Virus record (IMG/VR): IMGVR_UViG_3300037457_000049
Coordinates: 1 to 50,789 of that record
Source: a virus
Taxonomy: Duplodnaviria > Caudoviricetes
Length of the DNA stretch: 50,789 nucleotides
Strand: one strand, 5' to 3'
Part shown: positions 2,204 through 36,758 of the stretch, one piece after another
How the letters are laid out: each line of letters starts with the position of its first letter
Position numbering within the stretch: the first letter of the stretch is position 1
Program-made: the position numbers and the translations under genes
The notes under the pieces: generated by a model
What the model saw: the letters and a program-made list of their open reading frames with translations, nothing else
Database searches by the model: none
What the model was told of the DNA's origin: nothing

Positions 2204-2568
2204 CCACCCACCAGCCACCCGACTGGACCCCACCGACCAAGGACCTGCCGCACGCGCCACCGCCCATCGTCAACCTGGTCGCGGAGAAGCCAAGGTGCCC
2301 CGCGGCCACCGCCGACGGCTCGTGCCGCTGGCCGCTGTCCGCCGGCCCGTGCCCGTGGCACCTGGACGCTGGGCACCTCGACGCCGACCGCCGGGCCGAT
2401 GCGCTCGACGCCGTGTGGATCGCCCGTTACCCGGACTGCTCGGCGCTGGCCGCGTTCGCCACCGAGATTGACGCCCTGCGGCACGCCGTGAAGCACAGCA
2501 TGGAAGTGGTGCGCGTGCCGTGGGGCGAAGACATCCGCGCCTACCAGCCAGGAAGGACCACCCGATGA
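2200..2568 (+). CDS. Hypothetical protein
   Basis: RBS AGGAAGGA, ATGA overlaps at both ends; C-x7-C-x7-CxxH motif. Confidence 0.7.
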   Translation: MTTHQPPDWTPPTKDLPHAPPPIVNLVAEKPRCPAATADGSCRWPLSAGPCPWHLDAGHLDADRRADALDAVWIARYPDCSALAAFATEIDALRHAVKHSMEVVRVPWGEDIRAYQPGRTTR

Positions 2569-4661
2569 CCGCCACCCACCCGACTGCCGGCTGGCGGGAC
2601 GACCCCGACGTGCTCAGCTGGGACTGGCGGCACCAGCCCGACATGGGTGAGCTGGCGCTGCTGCTGGCCCGCCATGGTGTCCGCCTGACGGAGCTGGACA
2701 CCGGCAGCGACCAGTTCGCCATCCGGATCACCACCGACCCGACCCCGCAGCCGGCCACGCACGCGTCCGGCCCGCTCGCCGGCCAGCCGGTGACCCCGAC
2801 CCCTGTCGAACAGTTGGTGGAGCACATCGCCCACCACCGTCCCCCCGGCCGGCCGGTTGTCGACTGCCAGTGGTGTCCGGAGCCGGAGCCCGAGCGGGTG
2901 CCCGTGGTGGTGCTGGAGGATGCGCTGTGCCGCCGTGTGTGGGCCGGCGCGCTGCGGTGGGCCGCGCCGCCCGGCATGGTGGGCAACCTGCCCGACCACA
3001 TCCGCCGGTGGGCTAACCAGATCGAGGCCGGCCAGCTCACCCCGTGGGCCGGCCAGCCGGAGCCGCCCGCCGCGCCCGCCCAGCCGGCCCAGGACGATCC
3101 GCGCGACTACTACCCGATGCATGACCACGGGTACGGCCGCCACTCCCACCACGTTGCCCAGAAACATGCTGGCGACGTGGCCAACCCGCGAGCAAACGAC
3201 CACAGCGGCCTGCCGCGCGTCACCCAGCAGGAGGCCTACCAGCCAGCCGCCGGCCCCACCCCGGGCCAAGCGGACTTGGCGTCAGGGGGTGACGCGCAAA
3301 GTGAACCGGCGGTTCCGTTGGCGCCAGCGCCCACCGGCGCGGCCATCCTGGGCCGGGCGCTGCTGGGTGCGCGCGTCTGGCGCTGCCCGGTCGCCCACCC
3401 GGCGCACGGCCAGTGCGAGCTGTACCAGGGCCACCGGCCCGCCGGCGACCCGGACCGTCGGCACCGCACCGGCGCGCTGTCTTGGTTGACCGACGCGGAG
3501 ATCCAGGCGTGCGGGCTGCCGCCGCTGGCCTCCTACGCCGGCACGGACTTACAATCCGGGCCGGCAAATGCAAGCGCGGAGTCGGCCGCTACGGCTAATT
3601 TGGCCACCGCTAGCCACGGATTAGCCACCCCCGCCCCGGAGTCGGCCGGTGGCCCCGGATGGGACCGGAAGACGATCGTCGCGCTCGCCGCCGGGTTGGC
3701 CGGTGAGGTGCTGGATGCCGAGCTGATCAGCCCGGAACGGGGCCGGGAGCTGAGGGATCAGGTGCTGGCCCTGCTCGCCGACTTGGACCTGTACGTCGGG
3801 GCGCTGGATACCCGCTCCACCCAGCTCTACGATGCGTTGGCCGAGCGGGACGCCGCCCGCGCCGAGCTGGAGGCTGCCCAGCGCATCCTGGGGCACGGGG
3901 TGCGCGTCGAGAAGATGCTGGAGGGCGAGCGGGACGCCGCCCGCGCCGAGCTGGCCGTGGTGTCCGCCGACCTAGTCCGATTCACCAAGACCGCCCTGGC
4001 GTGGGCGGATGAGGGCTGCCGCTTCGAGGTGCAGCGCGACCAGGCCCAGCGCGAGGTGGCCCGGTTGGAGGAGGAGCTGGTCGGTGTCCGCAGCGAATGC
4101 GACCGGCTACGCGACGCGCTCACCAACTCCCGCGCGGCGGCATCGGACCGCAAGGCCGACGCGGACAAGATCGCGCACGACCTGATCACTGAGCGGAACC
4201 AGGCCGTGCGCGATGTGCACGCGGTGAACGAGGCGCTCCGCGCAGCCACCGCTGAGCAGGCCACCGCCCGCGAGGAGGTCGACCAGACACGGCTGCAAGC
4301 GGCCGAGGCGCGCACCGTCGCCGACAGCTACGCCGAGCAGCTGGACGCCGCCCGCGCCGAACTGGCCCGTGTCGCTGGCAGTCTCGCAAACCGGGACGCA
4401 ACCCTGGCGGCGCGTACGGCTCAGTTGAACGCCGTGCGCGAGCAACTGGCCGAGGTGACCGAGTCCGAGATCCGGGCACGCGCCGAGCTGGCCACCGCCC
4501 GCCGGGACGCCGCAGCCGACACGCTGAAGTGGCTCGGCGACGGTCGAGCCGGCGTACCGCTCAACTCCGGCGCCATACGCACACTGGCCGCCGAGGTCCG
4601 CGCCGGCACCCGCCCCGTCCCTGGCAGCCCGGAGCCGGACGGAGGTGGCGACGATGGCTGA
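2565..4661 (+). CDS. Large mosaic protein with C-terminal coiled coil
   Basis: 698-aa ORF with RBS; ERDAARAEL heptad repeats (29-bp direct repeat 3842-3870/3926-3954). Confidence 0.7.
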   Translation: MTATHPTAGWRDDPDVLSWDWRHQPDMGELALLLARHGVRLTELDTGSDQFAIRITTDPTPQPATHASGPLAGQPVTPTPVEQLVEHIAHHRPPGRPVVDCQWCPEPEPERVPVVVLEDALCRRVWAGALRWAAPPGMVGNLPDHIRRWANQIEAGQLTPWAGQPEPPAAPAQPAQDDPRDYYPMHDHGYGRHSHHVAQKHAGDVANPRANDHSGLPRVTQQEAYQPAAGPTPGQADLASGGDAQSEPAVPLAPAPTGAAILGRALLGARVWRCPVAHPAHGQCELYQGHRPAGDPDRRHRTGALSWLTDAEIQACGLPPLASYAGTDLQSGPANASAESAATANLATASHGLATPAPESAGGPGWDRKTIVALAAGLAGEVLDAELISPERGRELRDQVLALLADLDLYVGALDTRSTQLYDALAERDAARAELEAAQRILGHGVRVEKMLEGERDAARAELAVVSADLVRFTKTALAWADEGCRFEVQRDQAQREVARLEEELVGVRSECDRLRDALTNSRAAASDRKADADKIAHDLITERNQAVRDVHAVNEALRAATAEQATAREEVDQTRLQAAEARTVADSYAEQLDAARAELARVAGSLANRDATLAARTAQLNAVREQLAEVTESEIRARAELATARRDAAADTLKWLGDGRAGVPLNSGAIRTLAAEVRAGTRPVPGSPEPDGGGDDG

Positions 4662-18204: not shown

Positions 18205-20997
18205 GTGCCGACCGTCCGGCGGCTGGACGCCGACGATGCTGTCGTCTTCGCCGCCGGGTTAGGCGGCGTCGACAGCTTCGCCTTCGGCGCGCTTGCGTTC
18301 TTGTTCCGGCCACTGGCCGCCTACGACTCCACAAACAGGACGCTGCTGGCCGCCTACGACTCGACCGGCGCCCAGGTCGGGAAGATCGCACTCAGCACGG
18401 CCAACAAGGTTCAGTGGTTCACCGGCGGCTCGGGCGGCAACGGGCCGACCGCCACCGCCGGCGACTGGCACGCGCTGATAGTCCGCAAGGTCACCGGCAC
18501 CGCGCAGGTCCGGTTCAGCCTCCTGAACGTTGCCAGCGGTTGGACCCACGTCGACACCGCGGGTACGTTCGGCGACTGGACAGCGCCGACCGGTGGGACC
18601 TGGAGCACGTCCGACATCACGTTTGGCTGGGGTCCGGGTTCCGACCTGGCCGCCATGGCGGTATGGGCGAACGTGCTGCCGTGGGCGGCCGACACGTTCG
18701 GTGACGCCGAGATCGAGGCGGCCGGACTGGAAGGCCACCTCAACAACTGGCAGACCGCGGCCCCGACGGCAGGGTGGGCGTTCTTCCAGCCCGACGTCAA
18801 CGTCAACATCGAAGACTGGACCCTCGACCGGGCCGACGAGATTTCGGTAGCTGTCGGCGCCGCGGTGAACGCGACCGACCTGGATTTCCAGTATGAGGAC
18901 ACCGGCCTCGCCATCGTCTCGCGTAACTTCCTGCGCAACACACAGGACGAGCCGGGCGCTGGCGGCACGGTCTTTGACCTGTCGGAGGACCCGGGCACCG
19001 CAACCACGCTCGGCTCGGGTAGCACGTCATCCGGCGGCTACACGAAGATGCTCGAATGGGTGCGGACGGTGGGGACCGCGGTCGGCTCGGCCACGATCTC
19101 CACCCAGTTGCAGGTCACCGCCGTGTCCGCGGCCACCCTGGCCTACAAGTGGCAGGTCCACCGTTACAACTCGGCCGGGGTGCTTCAGGCTGACTCCGAC
19201 TTCTCCGGCGAGCACAACACCGTCGGGATCAAGGTCGCGACGCTGACCCTGGCCACGACCTGGTCGGCTGGTGACCGGCTGGGGTACTCGCTGTGGCTGC
19301 GCAAGGCCAGCGGCGGCGGCAGCCGGAACATCACCATCGCGGTCAACGACCCCGACTCGTGGGCCGAGTACGAGGTGGCGGTCATACCCCCCGCCATCGT
19401 CACCGCCTCGATCCCGCTGGCCGTCGCGGTTGCGCCGGCTGTGGCCGCCGACCATGCGGTCACCGCCGACATCCCGCTGGCCGTGGCGGTCGCCCCGACC
19501 GTCGCGGCGCCAAGCGCCACCGGGCTGGTCTCCGGTGAGGTGTCCATCAACCCGGCGACGCTGAGCTGCGCCGTGGGTGAGCGGCTGGTCTGCATCGCCT
19601 GGTCCCGCGGTGGCGGCACCAGCTTCGGTGTGACACCGGATGCGGGCGGGTCCAGCTGGACCAACCGGGTGGTCGAGGCCACACTGCCGACCAACGACCT
19701 GGCCCGCCGCTCCGTGGGCGTGGCCGAGCTCGTGCCCGCGTCCGAGGTGGTCGGCGGCGTGTTCACGGCGGCCTGGTCGGGCGATGCCACCGACGCGATC
19801 TGGCTGCGGGTCCAGGAGGGCGGCAGCTTCGGCTTCGCCGCCGCTGCGGTGGCCGACTCCGACACCAGCTTTGTGACGAGCCTGGCCACCGGGGACACGG
19901 CGAGCATCCCGGCCGGGGACCTGCTGCTGGTCGCTGCTGCGGCGATCCGCGACGGTGGTGCGGCCGGCACCAGCTGGGCCAACGCGGACATCAACCCGGG
20001 GCTGGTCGGCGGCGGGAACCTGCTGCTGGACGGCTACGCGGGCAAGGGCGCCGGCGGCAACGGCGGCGTGGCCGGCTACCTGATCCTGGACGGCCAGGGC
20101 GCCGGGGTCCGCGCGGACACGCTCACCCTGCCCGGTGGTGACGCGGCCAAACAGATCAGCGTGGCGCTGGTGGTGTGGTCCACCGGCGTGACCAGCACGC
20201 CTGAGGTGACCGCTGCTATCCCGCTGGCTGTGGCGGTCGCCGCGACTGCTGAGGCCGAGCACCAGGCGACCGCCGACGTGGACCTGGCGGTCACGGTCGC
20301 CGCCGCCGTCGAGACCGACCACGCCGTTACCGCGGCCGTGCCGCTGGCCCTCGACGTTGCGGCGGTGGTCGACGCACCGGCCGGCGCCAGTGAGGTGACC
20401 GCGGGCATCGGCCTGTCGGTGGCTGTTGCCGGCACGGCCGCGGCGGAGCACCGGGTGACCGCCGACGTGCCACTGTCGGTTGCCACCGCTGCCACCGCCA
20501 CCGCGCAGCACCAGGTCGCCGCCGCGGTTCCGCTCCAGCTGGACGTGGCCGCTGTCGTCGTCGCGCCGGTGGTCGGCGCCCCCGGCCAGGTCACGGCCGC
20601 GGTGCCGCTGAGCCTGGCCGTGGTCGCGACCACGGCCACCGGCTACCAGGCGGCCGCCGGGATTCCGCTGGCGTTGTCGGTCGCGCCGGTGGTCGAGGCG
20701 CCCGAGGTGGTGCTTCCCGGTCAGGTCGGTGCGACGATCCCGCTCGCCCTGTCCCTGGTGGCCACCACCGCGACCGGCTACCTGGCCACGGCCGCGGTGC
20801 CGCTGTCGCTGTCGGTCGGCGCGGTCGGTGGCGCCGGCCACGCGGTGGTCGCCGACGTGCCGCTCGGTCTGGCGTTGGGTGCGACGGTGGCGGCGTTCGA
20901 CCCGACCCGACCCGGGACCGCCACGCTGGTCGCGTCCCGTACCGCCAGCGTCACCGTCATCGCCCAGCGGGTGCCGACCTCAGGAGGTGTCACGTGA
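18205..20997 (+). CDS. 930-aa putative head/neck fibre: LamG-like N-terminus and ~20-aa Ala/Val repeats
   Basis: GDWHALIVRK (LamG-like); about 13 repeats of VTAxxPLxxxV; lies between capsid and adaptor genes. Confidence 0.65.
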   Translation: MPTVRRLDADDAVVFAAGLGGVDSFAFGALAFLFRPLAAYDSTNRTLLAAYDSTGAQVGKIALSTANKVQWFTGGSGGNGPTATAGDWHALIVRKVTGTAQVRFSLLNVASGWTHVDTAGTFGDWTAPTGGTWSTSDITFGWGPGSDLAAMAVWANVLPWAADTFGDAEIEAAGLEGHLNNWQTAAPTAGWAFFQPDVNVNIEDWTLDRADEISVAVGAAVNATDLDFQYEDTGLAIVSRNFLRNTQDEPGAGGTVFDLSEDPGTATTLGSGSTSSGGYTKMLEWVRTVGTAVGSATISTQLQVTAVSAATLAYKWQVHRYNSAGVLQADSDFSGEHNTVGIKVATLTLATTWSAGDRLGYSLWLRKASGGGSRNITIAVNDPDSWAEYEVAVIPPAIVTASIPLAVAVAPAVAADHAVTADIPLAVAVAPTVAAPSATGLVSGEVSINPATLSCAVGERLVCIAWSRGGGTSFGVTPDAGGSSWTNRVVEATLPTNDLARRSVGVAELVPASEVVGGVFTAAWSGDATDAIWLRVQEGGSFGFAAAAVADSDTSFVTSLATGDTASIPAGDLLLVAAAAIRDGGAAGTSWANADINPGLVGGGNLLLDGYAGKGAGGNGGVAGYLILDGQGAGVRADTLTLPGGDAAKQISVALVVWSTGVTSTPEVTAAIPLAVAVAATAEAEHQATADVDLAVTVAAAVETDHAVTAAVPLALDVAAVVDAPAGASEVTAGIGLSVAVAGTAAAEHRVTADVPLSVATAATATAQHQVAAAVPLQLDVAAVVVAPVVGAPGQVTAAVPLSLAVVATTATGYQAAAGIPLALSVAPVVEAPEVVLPGQVGATIPLALSLVATTATGYLATAAVPLSLSVGAVGGAGHAVVADVPLGLALGATVAAFDPTRPGTATLVASRTASVTVIAQRVPTSGGVT

Positions 20998-33950: not shown

Positions 33951-33988
33951 GGGAGCCCTCCCGGACTTGGTGGCCCGGGAGGGCTCCC
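33951..33988. terminator. Terminator hairpin between convergent operons
   Basis: Perfect 14-bp stem GGGAGCCCTCCCGG/CCGGGAGGGCTCCC. Confidence 0.75.
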
Positions 33989-34000
33989 CTCCGTCGTGTC

Positions 34001-34829: not shown

Positions 34830-35453
34830 TCAGGACTCCGGCGTGATCTGCTGTACGTGGGCCACCGCAACCCGGAACGGCCCACCAAGCGGGTCGGGTC
34901 CGGTGATCATGTACACGGTTGGGTGGCTAGGGCCACGGAGCACAACCTGCCGCGCCTCCTGCCATTCGGCCTGCGGGCCGGCGATCTGCCGGGCAAGCGT
35001 GTCCAGGTCCGGCGCCTCATACTCGACACCACTGTCCACGTCGCGGTAGGTGCTCATGATCTCCGGCCCGCCGGCCACGAACACGGTGCCCAGCTCGTCA
35101 TCGGCGTAGGCGCCGGTCTCGCCGGCCGCCAGCGACTGGGCGTGCTCGGCGGCGGTGGCCGGGCGGATCGCCTCGCCGGTGGTGTAGTCGGTCAGCGTGC
35201 CGTGGTCCTGCCGGGCGGGGTGGTCGGTGAAGTCGAGGCCGCGGTTGCGCTCCAGGCCGACGAGCTCGCCGGCGCCGTGGTGCTCGAAGTCGGCGACGTC
35301 CTGCGCGTCGTTCGGGTTGTACTTCCAGCCGCCCATGCTGATCGGGGTGCTGGCGGACTCGGGGCTCTGGGTCATGGTGGTCTCCTCAGTGTCGTCGGGG
35401 ATGGTGACGTGGCGCTGTAGCGTCTCGGACCAGTACGTACGCATCAAGATCAT
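34830..35453 (-). CDS. Hypothetical protein (alternative start 35375)
   Basis: RBS before 35453 and a second GAGGAG before ATG 35375. Confidence 0.65.
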   Translation of the reverse strand: MILMRTYWSETLQRHVTIPDDTEETTMTQSPESASTPISMGGWKYNPNDAQDVADFEHHGAGELVGLERNRGLDFTDHPARQDHGTLTDYTTGEAIRPATAAEHAQSLAAGETGAYADDELGTVFVAGGPEIMSTYRDVDSGVEYEAPDLDTLARQIAGPQAEWQEARQVVLRGPSHPTVYMITGPDPLGGPFRVAVAHVQQITPES

Positions 35454-35722
35454 CCTTCCTGGTGGTCAGTGGACACGGACAAGATCCAGTGGTCCAGCAG
35501 GTCACCCAGCAGCGCCCCGTGGACCTCCCGCGGGCCGAGCTGCTCACCCCACCCGTCGCCGCGCTCGGCGATCAGCAGGTAGCCGCTGTCTGGGTGCCTG
35601 GAGTACCGGCGCCAGCCCAGCTCGGGCCTGCCGGGGTGGACCATCAGGACCACCAGCCCGGCGTCGAGCCGGTCACGAAGATCCTTGGCGGTCTGGGTGG
35701 TGGTGGCGTTCATCAAGATCAT
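35450..35722 (-). CDS. Hypothetical protein
   Basis: RBS GAAAGGG; ATGA coupling to the next gene. Confidence 0.65.
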   Translation of the reverse strand: MILMNATTTQTAKDLRDRLDAGLVVLMVHPGRPELGWRRYSRHPDSGYLLIAERGDGWGEQLGPREVHGALLGDLLDHWILSVSTDHQEG

Positions 35723-35780
35723 CCCTTTCGGTGGTGGTAGTGGGTGGTGGGTGGTGGGTGTCAGTGTGGCCGACGGCCGG

Positions 35781-36008
35781 TCAGCGGAGCTGGTCCTCGG
35801 TCACGTGGTAGCCGCTCCAGCTGCCACCGACGCTCATGATCCAGCGGGTCTTACGGCCCGGTGTCGCGTCCTCCTCCCAGGTCACAGCCTCGTCGGGGTA
35901 CGGCTCGTCGCGGTACTCGGCCCGCTTCCGGGCGGCGGCCTGCGCAGCCTCACGCTCCCGGAACGCCCCGAGATAGCCGCTGTTGCAGAACAGCGTGTAG
36001 ATCTTCAT
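35781..36008 (-). CDS. Hypothetical protein, first gene of the leftward operon
   Basis: ATG 36008 with GAGGGG upstream. Confidence 0.65.
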   Translation of the reverse strand: MKIYTLFCNSGYLGAFREREAAQAAARKRAEYRDEPYPDEAVTWEEDATPGRKTRWIMSVGGSWSGYHVTEDQLR

Positions 36009-36028
36009 AGCGTTCCCATCCCCTCTCG

Positions 36029-36425
36029 GTCCTGCCTCCACCGGCACAGCCAGCGACGCTGCTTTTTCATCCGCGTGTTCCGCAAGCGGGGCGGGTATAG
36101 CGGCTACGACTAGCGGCCACGCCCAGACCGTGACCTTGCCGTGCCGCGCGGCTTCCCCCGGTTACCCGGGTTCGCTGGGCGCTGGCTGTGCTGGAGGCTG
36201 CAGGTCCCTGCGTCCTGCATCCTCCTAGCTGGCGCGGGTGTAGGGCTCATTGATGGGGGCGACTTCGGCCTATCCCCGGTTCCCGCTGAGCCAGTCCGGG
36301 GAGCACATCGCCGCGTGACGGGTCAGCCGCGCCAGCTAGGAGGCTGCAGGTCCTCCTTCGTCCCTGGGCGGTTCTAATCGCGGTGGCCGCTGTTCTCATT
36401 TGGCCGGGGACCTCTTTGCTCTTGT
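36029..36425 (-). ncRNA. Candidate large structured RNA / leader with tandem domains
   Basis: 24-bp inverted repeat 36214-36237/36327-36350; second long stem 36031-36055/36180-36204; 15-bp direct repeat 36193-36207/36339-36353; GUAA and G(CUUG)C tetraloops on the minus strand. Confidence 0.6.
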
Positions 36426-36542
36426 ATCTACAGCTTAGCTGACTATGTAGCTACTCACAAGCCTGAGAGGTCATACTTTCGGCCAGTCATGTAGCTACGT
36501 ACGGCCGACGTTGCACGGACGGTACGTAGCTACGCTGGGAAG
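36423..36542. promoter_or_regulatory. Divergent promoters with four GTAGCTAC-type operators
   Basis: GTAGCTAC at 36447, 36491, 36526 and GTATCTAC at 36424; leftward TTGTGA-N17-TAAGCT (36460-36432); rightward -10 TACGCT 36531-36536. Confidence 0.75.
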
Positions 36543-36758
36543 ATGGCCACTCCCCCCGACCCGCCCTACCCGGGTACCCGCCTACACGCCATGCGCATTC
36601 CGAATGAGCTGTGGTACCCGGCGCTGGAGATTGCCCGCGCCCGGGCGGCTGCCGGAGTGGAGGGGGAGACCCTCACTGCGGTGGTGGTGCGGGCGCTGCG
36701 GGCGTACATCCGGCGGCACGGTGACCTGACCCGCGTGGTCGAGCGGGAGGAGACGTAG
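36543..36758 (+). CDS. Ribbon-helix-helix transcriptional regulator
   Basis: TRLHAMRIPNELW...LTAVVVRALRAYI; leaderless start. Confidence 0.75.
   Translation: MATPPDPPYPGTRLHAMRIPNELWYPALEIARARAAAGVEGETLTAVVVRALRAYIRRHGDLTRVVEREET

Follow-up and report, generated by a model that had tools for sequence, protein, structure and literature searches.

A modular family of helix-closed domains between promoter and first gene in uncultured phages

Long structured leaders behind repressor-controlled phage promoters are known from few cases (the L5 Pleft leader, HK022 put and the dicB leader) and are poorly understood. Here we describe an element of this kind in the IMG/VR virus record IMGVR_UViG_3300037457_000049, an uncultured temperate siphovirus-like phage genome with a completeness rating of 100%, which was analysed over its entire 50,789 bp (G+C 70.7%) and is called the window below. 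The element fills ~415 noncoding nt between a sigma-70-like promoter and the first gene of a leftward operon, and comprises a small 5' domain (D0) followed by two larger domains (D1 and D2), each closed by a long helix. It is a real, conserved, noncoding and modular structured element, and it forms a new family of unusual cassette design within the phage promoter-proximal leader RNAs.

In the mycobacteriophages L5, D29 and StarStuff, a region of ~500 nt between the repressor-controlled promoter Pleft and the first gene gives rise to very abundant, stable, processed and toxic noncoding RNAs (PMC5712189). The Pleft leader of Cluster A resembles the window element in that several hundred noncoding nucleotides lie between a repressor-controlled promoter and the first gene in a temperate actinophage system, and the L5 leader is strongly structured too (z-score -5.2). 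In contrast to the window, the L5 leader has no similarity to the domains described here (a D1 model reached 9.5 bits at best on it) and contains no inverted repeat of at least 12 nt, so it lacks the helix-clamped cassette plan. The promoter of L5 serves the main early lytic operon, located at one end of the genome, whereas the window promoter precedes a short accessory operon between lysis and immunity genes. As a separate observation, a stretch resembling the T arm of a transfer RNA (tRNA), GGGUUCGAUUCCC, is present near the 3' part of the Pleft leader of phage L5 (locus L126; 51,083-51,672, minus strand), in which ARAGORN calls no tRNA.

Two further leader systems can be compared with the window element. 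The putL and putR RNAs of HK022 are cis-acting RNAs of ~70 nt with two stem-loops situated just past early phage promoters, putL lying just downstream of PL (PMC9378689). D0 resembles them, in outline only, in size, position and hairpin count. Unlike put, the window element occurs in one copy per genome, carries large extra domains after D0 and belongs to other hosts and polymerases. The conAn2 element of pLS20-type conjugative plasmids (PMC8191782) lies in a leader region of 260-600 bp of a mobile-element operon and has a 238-bp centre flanked by 20-bp inverted repeats; it follows the conAn1 gene and needs the protein of that gene for long range, and its inverted repeats can be mutated without loss of antitermination. 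The window element likewise combines a large leader region with inverted repeats. Unlike conAn2, however, it lies within ~40 nt of its promoter with no open reading frame (ORF) ahead of it in the transcription unit, and its repeats show compensatory change.

In the leader-trailer helices of ribosomal RNA, the early messenger RNA (mRNA) sites of T7, DicF in the dicB operon and the Correia elements of Neisseria, long helices arise from the sequences on either side of a functional RNA, or from terminal inverted repeats within an mRNA; RNase III cuts them, so that the enclosed RNA is released or matured. The window element differs from these systems in that the enclosed cores are new and cleavage of the helices is a prediction. 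Its domains share with Correia-like insertion elements the terminal inverted repeats round a short core, but they are single-copy and fixed in place.

Anatomy of the leader in the window

On the minus strand, the element runs in the order promoter, D0, linker, D1, D2, ribosome site and ATG (Table 1). The initial annotation had proposed a leftward promoter TTGTGA-N17-TAAGCT ~415 nt before the gene at 36008, and both hexamers are present at this spacing. Judging from this promoter, transcription would start near 36425; the ATG at 36008 is the first credible start codon, ~418 nt from the likely transcription start. A promoter scanner, used at its thresholds, left the window promoter uncalled and called the homologous promoter in the related locus L124 (TTGACG-17-TATAGT, 10/12). 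A match to TTGnnn-N16/17-(T/C)AnnnT is found 12-38 nt ahead of the leader domain in 16 of 16 loci of the family described below, with differing spacers and operators.

D0, which the initial annotation had missed, is closed by the 5-bp helix P0, in which GUCCC (36411-36407) pairs with GGGAC (36364-36360), and has inner hairpins with the stems GGCC/GGCC and GCG/CGC. The linker behind it recalls the Shine-Dalgarno-like 5' mRNA stabilisers of Bacillus, and linkers are purine-rich in all domain classes. The helices of D1 and D2 correspond to inverted repeats of 27 nt (36214-36240 with 36324-36350; 93% complementary, 83 nt between the arms) and 28 nt (36028-36055 with 36180-36207; 82% complementary, 124 nt between the arms), which agrees with the 24-bp D1 stem with one mismatch and the 12-bp perfect D2 stem with a bulged extension that had been described before. 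The single mismatch in the 24-bp stem of D1 is G.A, and two more pairs follow past a C.C; the core of D2 is multi-branched and includes a GUAA and a CUUG hairpin. The closing helix of D1 has a predicted duplex energy of -52.1 kcal/mol, and that of D2 one of -45.2 kcal/mol.

Both domains open with the same 15-mer, GGACCTGCAGCCTCC, as had also been recognised: it is found exactly twice on the minus strand (36339-36353 and 36193-36207), and when up to 2 mismatches are allowed it has 3 matches in the window against 0.35 expected, a number reached in 1 of 100 shuffles. The strong structure claimed for the region was reproduced as well. The minus-strand RNA of 36025-36430 folds at -194 kcal/mol with a z-score of -3.67 (0 of 100 shuffles as stable), and the plus strand folds at -205 kcal/mol with a z-score of -2.73.

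Table 1 Positions of the leader features and adjoining features in the window
Feature	Position	Strand	Description
Arc-like (ribbon-helix-helix) repressor gene	36543-36758	+	71 amino acids (aa), divergent; PHROG 6506, expectation value (E) 5.9e-8
Operator-like repeats	36444-36533	.	around divergent promoters
Sigma-70-like promoter	36432-36460	-	TTGTGA 36460-36455, 17 nt, TAAGCT 36437-36432
D0, constant leader domain	36360-36411	-	52 nt; closing helix P0 and two inner hairpins
Purine-rich linker between D0 and D1	36351-36359	-	GAAGGAGGA; ribosome-binding look-alike with no start codon behind it
D1	36214-36350	-	137 nt; 27-position closing helix, 25 paired (36350-36324 with 36240-36214); 83-nt core nearly invariant
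D2	36031-36204	-	174 nt; 12 perfect pairs and irregular outer part (A.C, U.U and G.A mismatches)
Ribosome binding region and ATG (36008-36006) of first gene	36006-36025	-	outside the D2 helix, not sequestered
First gene of leftward operon	35781-36008	-	75 aa, no known family

Modular relatives and their conservation

The family consists of the window and 15 other IMG/VR contigs, giving 16 loci, all uncultured. A scan of viral contigs with the 15-mer returned 59 loci, 4 of them related (L008, L021, L032 and L058); L107 was found by a viral scan with a D1 core motif, and ten further contigs (L127-L136) by a D0 motif (13 loci returned, 10 new). All 16 loci share one plan of promoter, leader, one or two helix-closed domains, ribosome site and ATG. 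In each of the ten loci L127-L136, the promoter is followed by D0, a purine-rich linker and one or two domains with a closing helix of 20-29 positions; across the whole family the closing helices span 18-29 positions with 16-28 predicted pairs. D0 is present in 14 of the 16 loci, with one copy per locus, and the larger domains fall into several classes: D1 and D2 in the window's group of five loci and D1 alone in L107; X with Y in L127, L133 and L134; X' with Y' in L129, L130, L132 and L135; and Z alone in L128, L131 and L136. The domains are therefore modular, the same constant domain being combined with different clamped domains in related phages. The region consists of independently closed domains behind a promoter of credible appearance, in agreement with the initial annotation.

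The borders of the modules can be seen where the surroundings change. In L107, on a 100-kb contig, a lone D1 (89% identical) stands just after a promoter TTGACG-17-TATAGT, which the scanner calls, with its own operators and directly precedes an unrelated 64-aa gene. In G004 (L032/L118), D1 and D2 precede a different gene, and similarity ends right past the D2 helix. The first downstream genes of the family amount to about eight unrelated sequences, judged by eye. Where the flanks are known, the neighbourhood is alike, with integrase, DUF6221-like and small regulator genes on one side and, on the other, a short operon whose small genes lead into the lysis region. The classes agree in the outer ends of their helices: by a count made by eye over 28 domain instances, CCUG forms the 5' end in 22 (Y and Z have CUUG or CCUA) and CAGG the 3' end in 27. 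D2 and Z have in common a motif at the 5' side of the D2 core, CAGCGAAC, a hairpin and GGAAGCCGCGC, the hairpin stem being CCCGG/CCGGG in one and CCGC/GCGG in the other. The first large domain of L134 and L133 has a hybrid closing helix with mismatches, in which an X'-type 5' arm (GCUUCGAGGGG) faces an X-type 3' arm (CCCCCCGUGGC), which points to recombination within the arms.

Two side observations concern carriers of these domains. G005, a 53,369-bp contig (L064 and L065 1-340), starts inside D2 and has two different copies of the 75-aa gene, one per end, that are 89% and 92% identical to that of the window; it looks like a strain-variant assembly broken at the conserved element and not a true terminal repeat. 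In sequencing run X7, window positions 36256-36399 are covered by a 2257-nt contig with an L107-type D1 at a depth of 127, ~10x that of the flank contigs, and a D1 carrier is thus abundant in that sediment sample.

Searches beyond the family returned no homologue. In line with the initial annotation, which did not recognise a known RNA family, Rfam 15 at gathering thresholds matched neither the window, searched over its full length, nor any of ten related loci. With relaxed limits the best E was 0.79 in the window region (E up to 10) and, at E up to 1, 0.15 in L129 and 0.9 in L128 with none in L127, all far below gathering scores. A blastn search with 36000-36480 found no match among 50,697 phage records or in plasmids. 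Scans with the arm pattern returned only the 4 known relatives from viral contigs, 4 unrelated matches from 185,579 species genomes and 35 unrelated matches from 241 million metagenome records; further scans with D1 and D2 motifs added only L107, the others (L106, L108-L114 and L125) being chance matches. The D0 pattern had 12 matches in 11 of 401 sampled genomes of L067's phylum, all with 2 mismatches, and a reversed control pattern matches about as often, so D0 was not found in those 401 genomes. A search of literature listings returned no description of this leader element; the Cluster A leader alignment that accompanies PMC5712189 might show helix-closed units of which its main text makes no mention.

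Compared with three relatives, D1 is 95.9-99.3% and D2 94.6-96.8% identical, against 82.7-92.0% when only third codon positions in the adjacent gene are compared and 36-69% over the promoter/operator part. In the alignment of close relatives, the promoter/operator part varies from phage to phage and the sequence from the first closing helix through the ATG is nearly identical. Close relatives differ by insertions and deletions of 1 and 2 nt that disrupt both of the small ORFs conceivable here, so the region is not coding; a conserved coding frame, which the initial annotation had raised as the contrary case, was not seen.

Compensatory changes, the covariation that the initial annotation had proposed to test among homologues, support helices in D0, D1, X' and Y; D2 and Y' have no two-sided change. 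In the D1 helix of L107, 4 pairs are changed on both sides and still paired, a count reached by 0 of 500 shuffles, and the G.A mismatch of the window is U-A; the 83-nt core between the arms has very few changes. P0 is GUCCC/GGGAC in 6 loci, AUCCC/GGGAU in L107, which is compensatory, and GUUCC/GGGAC in 7, with U.G for C-G. X' has 7 two-sided pair changes, 3 of them outside an indel-shifted stretch. Y has 1 two-sided pair change; of its one-sided changes, 4 leave the pair intact and 1 disrupts it. Y' has 4 one-sided pair-keeping changes and 1 broken pair.

Among the five D2 copies, variable columns are concentrated outside the helices (12 of 62 unpaired columns versus 5 of 118 paired columns, p = 0.0016). 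All 5 copies have the G(CUUG)C loop, whereas the GUAA loop occurs in 3 and gives way in the other 2 to a shorter hairpin, CCCG-ACAC-CGGG. A candidate compensatory change in a D2 hairpin, from GCUA-GUCG-UAGC to GCGA-GUCG-UCGC in L058, was dropped, as L021 and G004 have a mismatched intermediate and both columns are unpaired in RNAalifold. The pseudoknot pairings described for D1 can be drawn; all their columns are invariant in 6 sequences, and RNAalifold prefers a nested alternative.

Proposed processing of the leader and rival explanations

Our preferred reading, held tentatively and at less than even confidence, is that of a leader RNA whose clamped domains are cut out at the long helices, probably by RNase III. 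The stretch would be the untranslated leader of a short accessory operon whose promoter, controlled by operators, lies in the immunity region of the temperate phage. Once this promoter is active, the transcript would fold, while being made, into a chain of self-contained domains, with D0 first at the 5' end and then one or two cargo domains, here D1 and D2, clamped by CCUG...CAGG helices of 20-29 positions. RNase III of the host, or a similar double-strand-specific nuclease, may then cut the long helices, which would set the cores free as stable small RNAs and give the downstream mRNA a processed 5' end. Common processing signals and recombination joints would be provided by the conserved ends of the helices together with D0, and this would explain the swapping of cargo between phages.

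Taken together, the sharp module borders, the standard helix ends, the interchangeable cores and the constant 5' domain are best explained if the leader is processed, yielding separate stable RNAs and a matured mRNA. The nearest studied precedent is the Pleft leader of L5, D29 and StarStuff. Since the element lies inside the transcription unit, sense RNA should be made whenever the operon is transcribed, and domains of -45 to -110 kcal/mol will fold. Helices of at least 20 pairs, uninterrupted or nearly so, are a standard substrate of RNase III, and the predicted closing helices are of the length that this enzyme cuts.

The sequences show the anatomy, the family, its conservation, the pairing and the absence of coding capacity, whereas we infer that the leader is transcribed leftward and cut and that the pieces set free have a role. 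Several observations weigh against this reading. In 6 of 7 classes the antisense strand is at least as stably folded as the sense strand, and the helices common to both strands carry 19 G.U columns, which can pair only in the sense RNA, versus 22 A.C columns, which can pair only in the antisense RNA; with all classes counted, the argument for the minus strand that the initial annotation drew from the tetraloops and a G-U pair does not stand. The sequences give no folding strand, and it is therefore context that indicates the direction of function: the element lies between promoter and first gene in all 16 loci, in one orientation and once per genome. No RNA run carrying 35700-36560 was found; the matching runs (X6, X7, X8 and X13) are DNA, with fragments of relatives and never both arms of a new variant. 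A search for complementarity of at least 13 nt to the rest of the phage genome gave nothing significant (best E 0.25). The covariation is thin, as the D1 evidence comes from the single lineage of L107 and two-sided changes are absent from D2 and Y', and the interiors of D0, D1 and D2 hardly vary. L058 and L021 carry D1 and D2 behind a different leader without D0, which is hence not required there. The family is also narrow, with 16 uncultured contigs, so relatedness inflates all counts.

The main rival, which we consider unlikely though by no means negligible, is processive antitermination or anti-pausing, in which the nascent leader, above all D0, would bind RNA polymerase and let it resist pauses and terminators, so that it could pass through the large hairpin-rich domains and the operon beyond. 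D0, with its ~52 nt and two hairpins 12-38 nt past the -10 box, is the most widely conserved part of the family; the put RNAs and conAn2 offer the likenesses described above, and the position right behind the regulated promoter of a mobile element would suit this role. However, no terminator-like site was found inside the leftward operon of the window or the longer operon of L124 (terminators without a U-tract would be missed), and there is only ~2 kb of operon to be read through in the window. L058 and L021 do without D0, no second copy of the element was found behind another promoter in the window or five relatives, unlike putL with putR, and no conAn1-like gene lies ahead of the element. 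A cis-acting gate, by which the leader would reduce operon expression or make it conditional, is quite doubtful. Here the long G+C-rich hairpins would act as a barrier or attenuator, or the cores would bind in a sensor of ligand, protein or temperature. The cores of D1 and D2 are more conserved than their closing helices, as is typical of aptamers or protein-binding cores with a closing P1 helix, and L5 RNA drops by >90% from the leader to the first gene with no evident terminator (PMC5712189). Neither domain is followed by a U-tract terminator, though, and the ribosome site is unpaired and outside the D2 helix, so that no expression platform of a riboswitch or attenuator was found in the window. 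The relaxed Rfam searches of the window (E up to 10) and of three other classes (E up to 1) also yielded no family, and it is hard to square a single sensed signal with quite different cores that interchange behind the same promoter type and D0.

The lack of strand preference in pairing, with both strands folding equally well, would suit an element that works as DNA, namely hairpins or cruciforms, binding or recombination sites, or the ends of small non-autonomous insertion elements, with RNA structure as a by-product. Terminal inverted repeats with conserved outer ends bound each domain, as in small insertion elements, and the hybrid helix of L134 and L133 shows recombination within the arms. 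We nevertheless regard this explanation as improbable: each genome has one copy, which in all 16 loci occupies an equivalent site between promoter and first gene and never changes its orientation, and the arm-pattern scans of genomes and metagenomes and the searches of phage and plasmid collections revealed no dispersed copies. Moreover, the compensatory changes keep complementarity and not a fixed end sequence, and the region is far from the terminase, replication and integrase-adjacent gaps expected for cos, ori and attP. The two-state switch suggested in the initial annotation, in which the 3' arm of D1 pairs with the 5' arm of D2 in place of the closing helices and so toggles expression, is highly improbable. 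These arms are complementary because D1 and D2 share the outer arm sequence, and the alternative hairpin can indeed form, but at -18.8 kcal/mol it is far weaker than the two closing helices, and the D1 helix would be complete before transcription reaches the 5' arm of D2. Only one domain is present in L107 and in the three loci of class Z, and the linker of G004 is 8 nt shorter, which would leave the alternative hairpin with a loop of 2 nt.

The processing reading can be extended to an exchangeable small-RNA cassette system, a proposal that we put forward as rather doubtful. D0 and the CCUG...CAGG ends would then form a landing and processing frame, with unrelated cargo RNAs swapped by recombination and excised by a double-strand nuclease once the promoter fires. 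If so, cargo RNAs this diverse, lodged among accessory genes that change quickly, would be in keeping with a role directed at the host or at competing phages, such as that of decoys for host defence or RNA-binding proteins. To the small group of structured leaders behind phage promoters, the family adds a clear design, in which one constant domain is combined with interchangeable domains clamped by helices of standard ends; it comprises 16 phage genomes and at least 6 classes. Its units of 52, 137 and 174 nt are defined enough to ask whether such leaders are processed, whether they affect transcription and what partners the released RNAs would have, and they raise the question of whether phage mosaicism works on RNA modules as it does on genes. 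The domains are also candidates for RNA family databases, which have nothing here at present.

Genome neighbourhood and other observations

The leader stretch occupies the 535-bp gap between the leftward operon and the rightward Arc-like repressor gene, whose product has no Pfam match. Within the operator region, ATGTAGCTAC is present at 36445-36454 and 36489-36498 and ACGTAGCTAC at 36524-36533, and 36491-36502 forms a perfect 12-nt inverted repeat with 36522-36533; relatives have quite different repeats at this position. Beyond the gap follow, in order, the Arc-like repressor gene, endonuclease VII, a DUF6221 protein, a leftward PadR-type regulator and a tyrosine integrase. The leftward operon, which sits between the lysis genes and the integration genes, runs from 36008 to ~34001 and encodes products of 75, 90, 207, 202 and 79 aa, none with a known family. 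A protein search of 5.8 billion proteins found only 4 close relatives of the 75-aa protein, and a locus search led to the same contigs; tblastn with the 75-aa and 207-aa proteins found no match in phages. The rightward genes at ~8.9-32.5 kb encode the large terminase, portal, protease, major head, tape-measure and endolysin proteins, and RecT-like and RuvC-like genes lie near the right end of the window. No tRNA or transfer-messenger RNA was found in the window.

The motif GTLTDY(T/R)TGEPIRPATAAEHAQSLAAGE, which corresponds to no family known, recurs in operon proteins of very different length, encoded at 34830-35453 in the window, 10768-11292 in L124, 5328-5489 in L127 and 11785-12030 in L134. 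Two ORFs of the window, 2520-4661 (713 aa) and 18205-20997 (930 aa), have gene-like codon bias and no PHROG match at E 1e-5. At the end of the leftward operon, between the converging lysis and leftward operons, a hairpin of ~17 bp (GGGGAGCCCUCCCGGGC...) at 33960-34000 is probably a two-way terminator; the z-score of the 146-nt stretch is -5.5. The arm-pattern scans also turned up an unrelated family of near-perfect palindromes, each ~120-145 nt long with CTGCAGCCTCCGGTAC and GTACCGGAGGCTGCAG at its borders, only because 11 letters are in common with the arms of the window. These palindromes occur in metagenome contigs of low G+C (37-47%), namely L076-L078, L081, L083, L086, L087, L092-L094, L096-L098, L100-L102 and L104.

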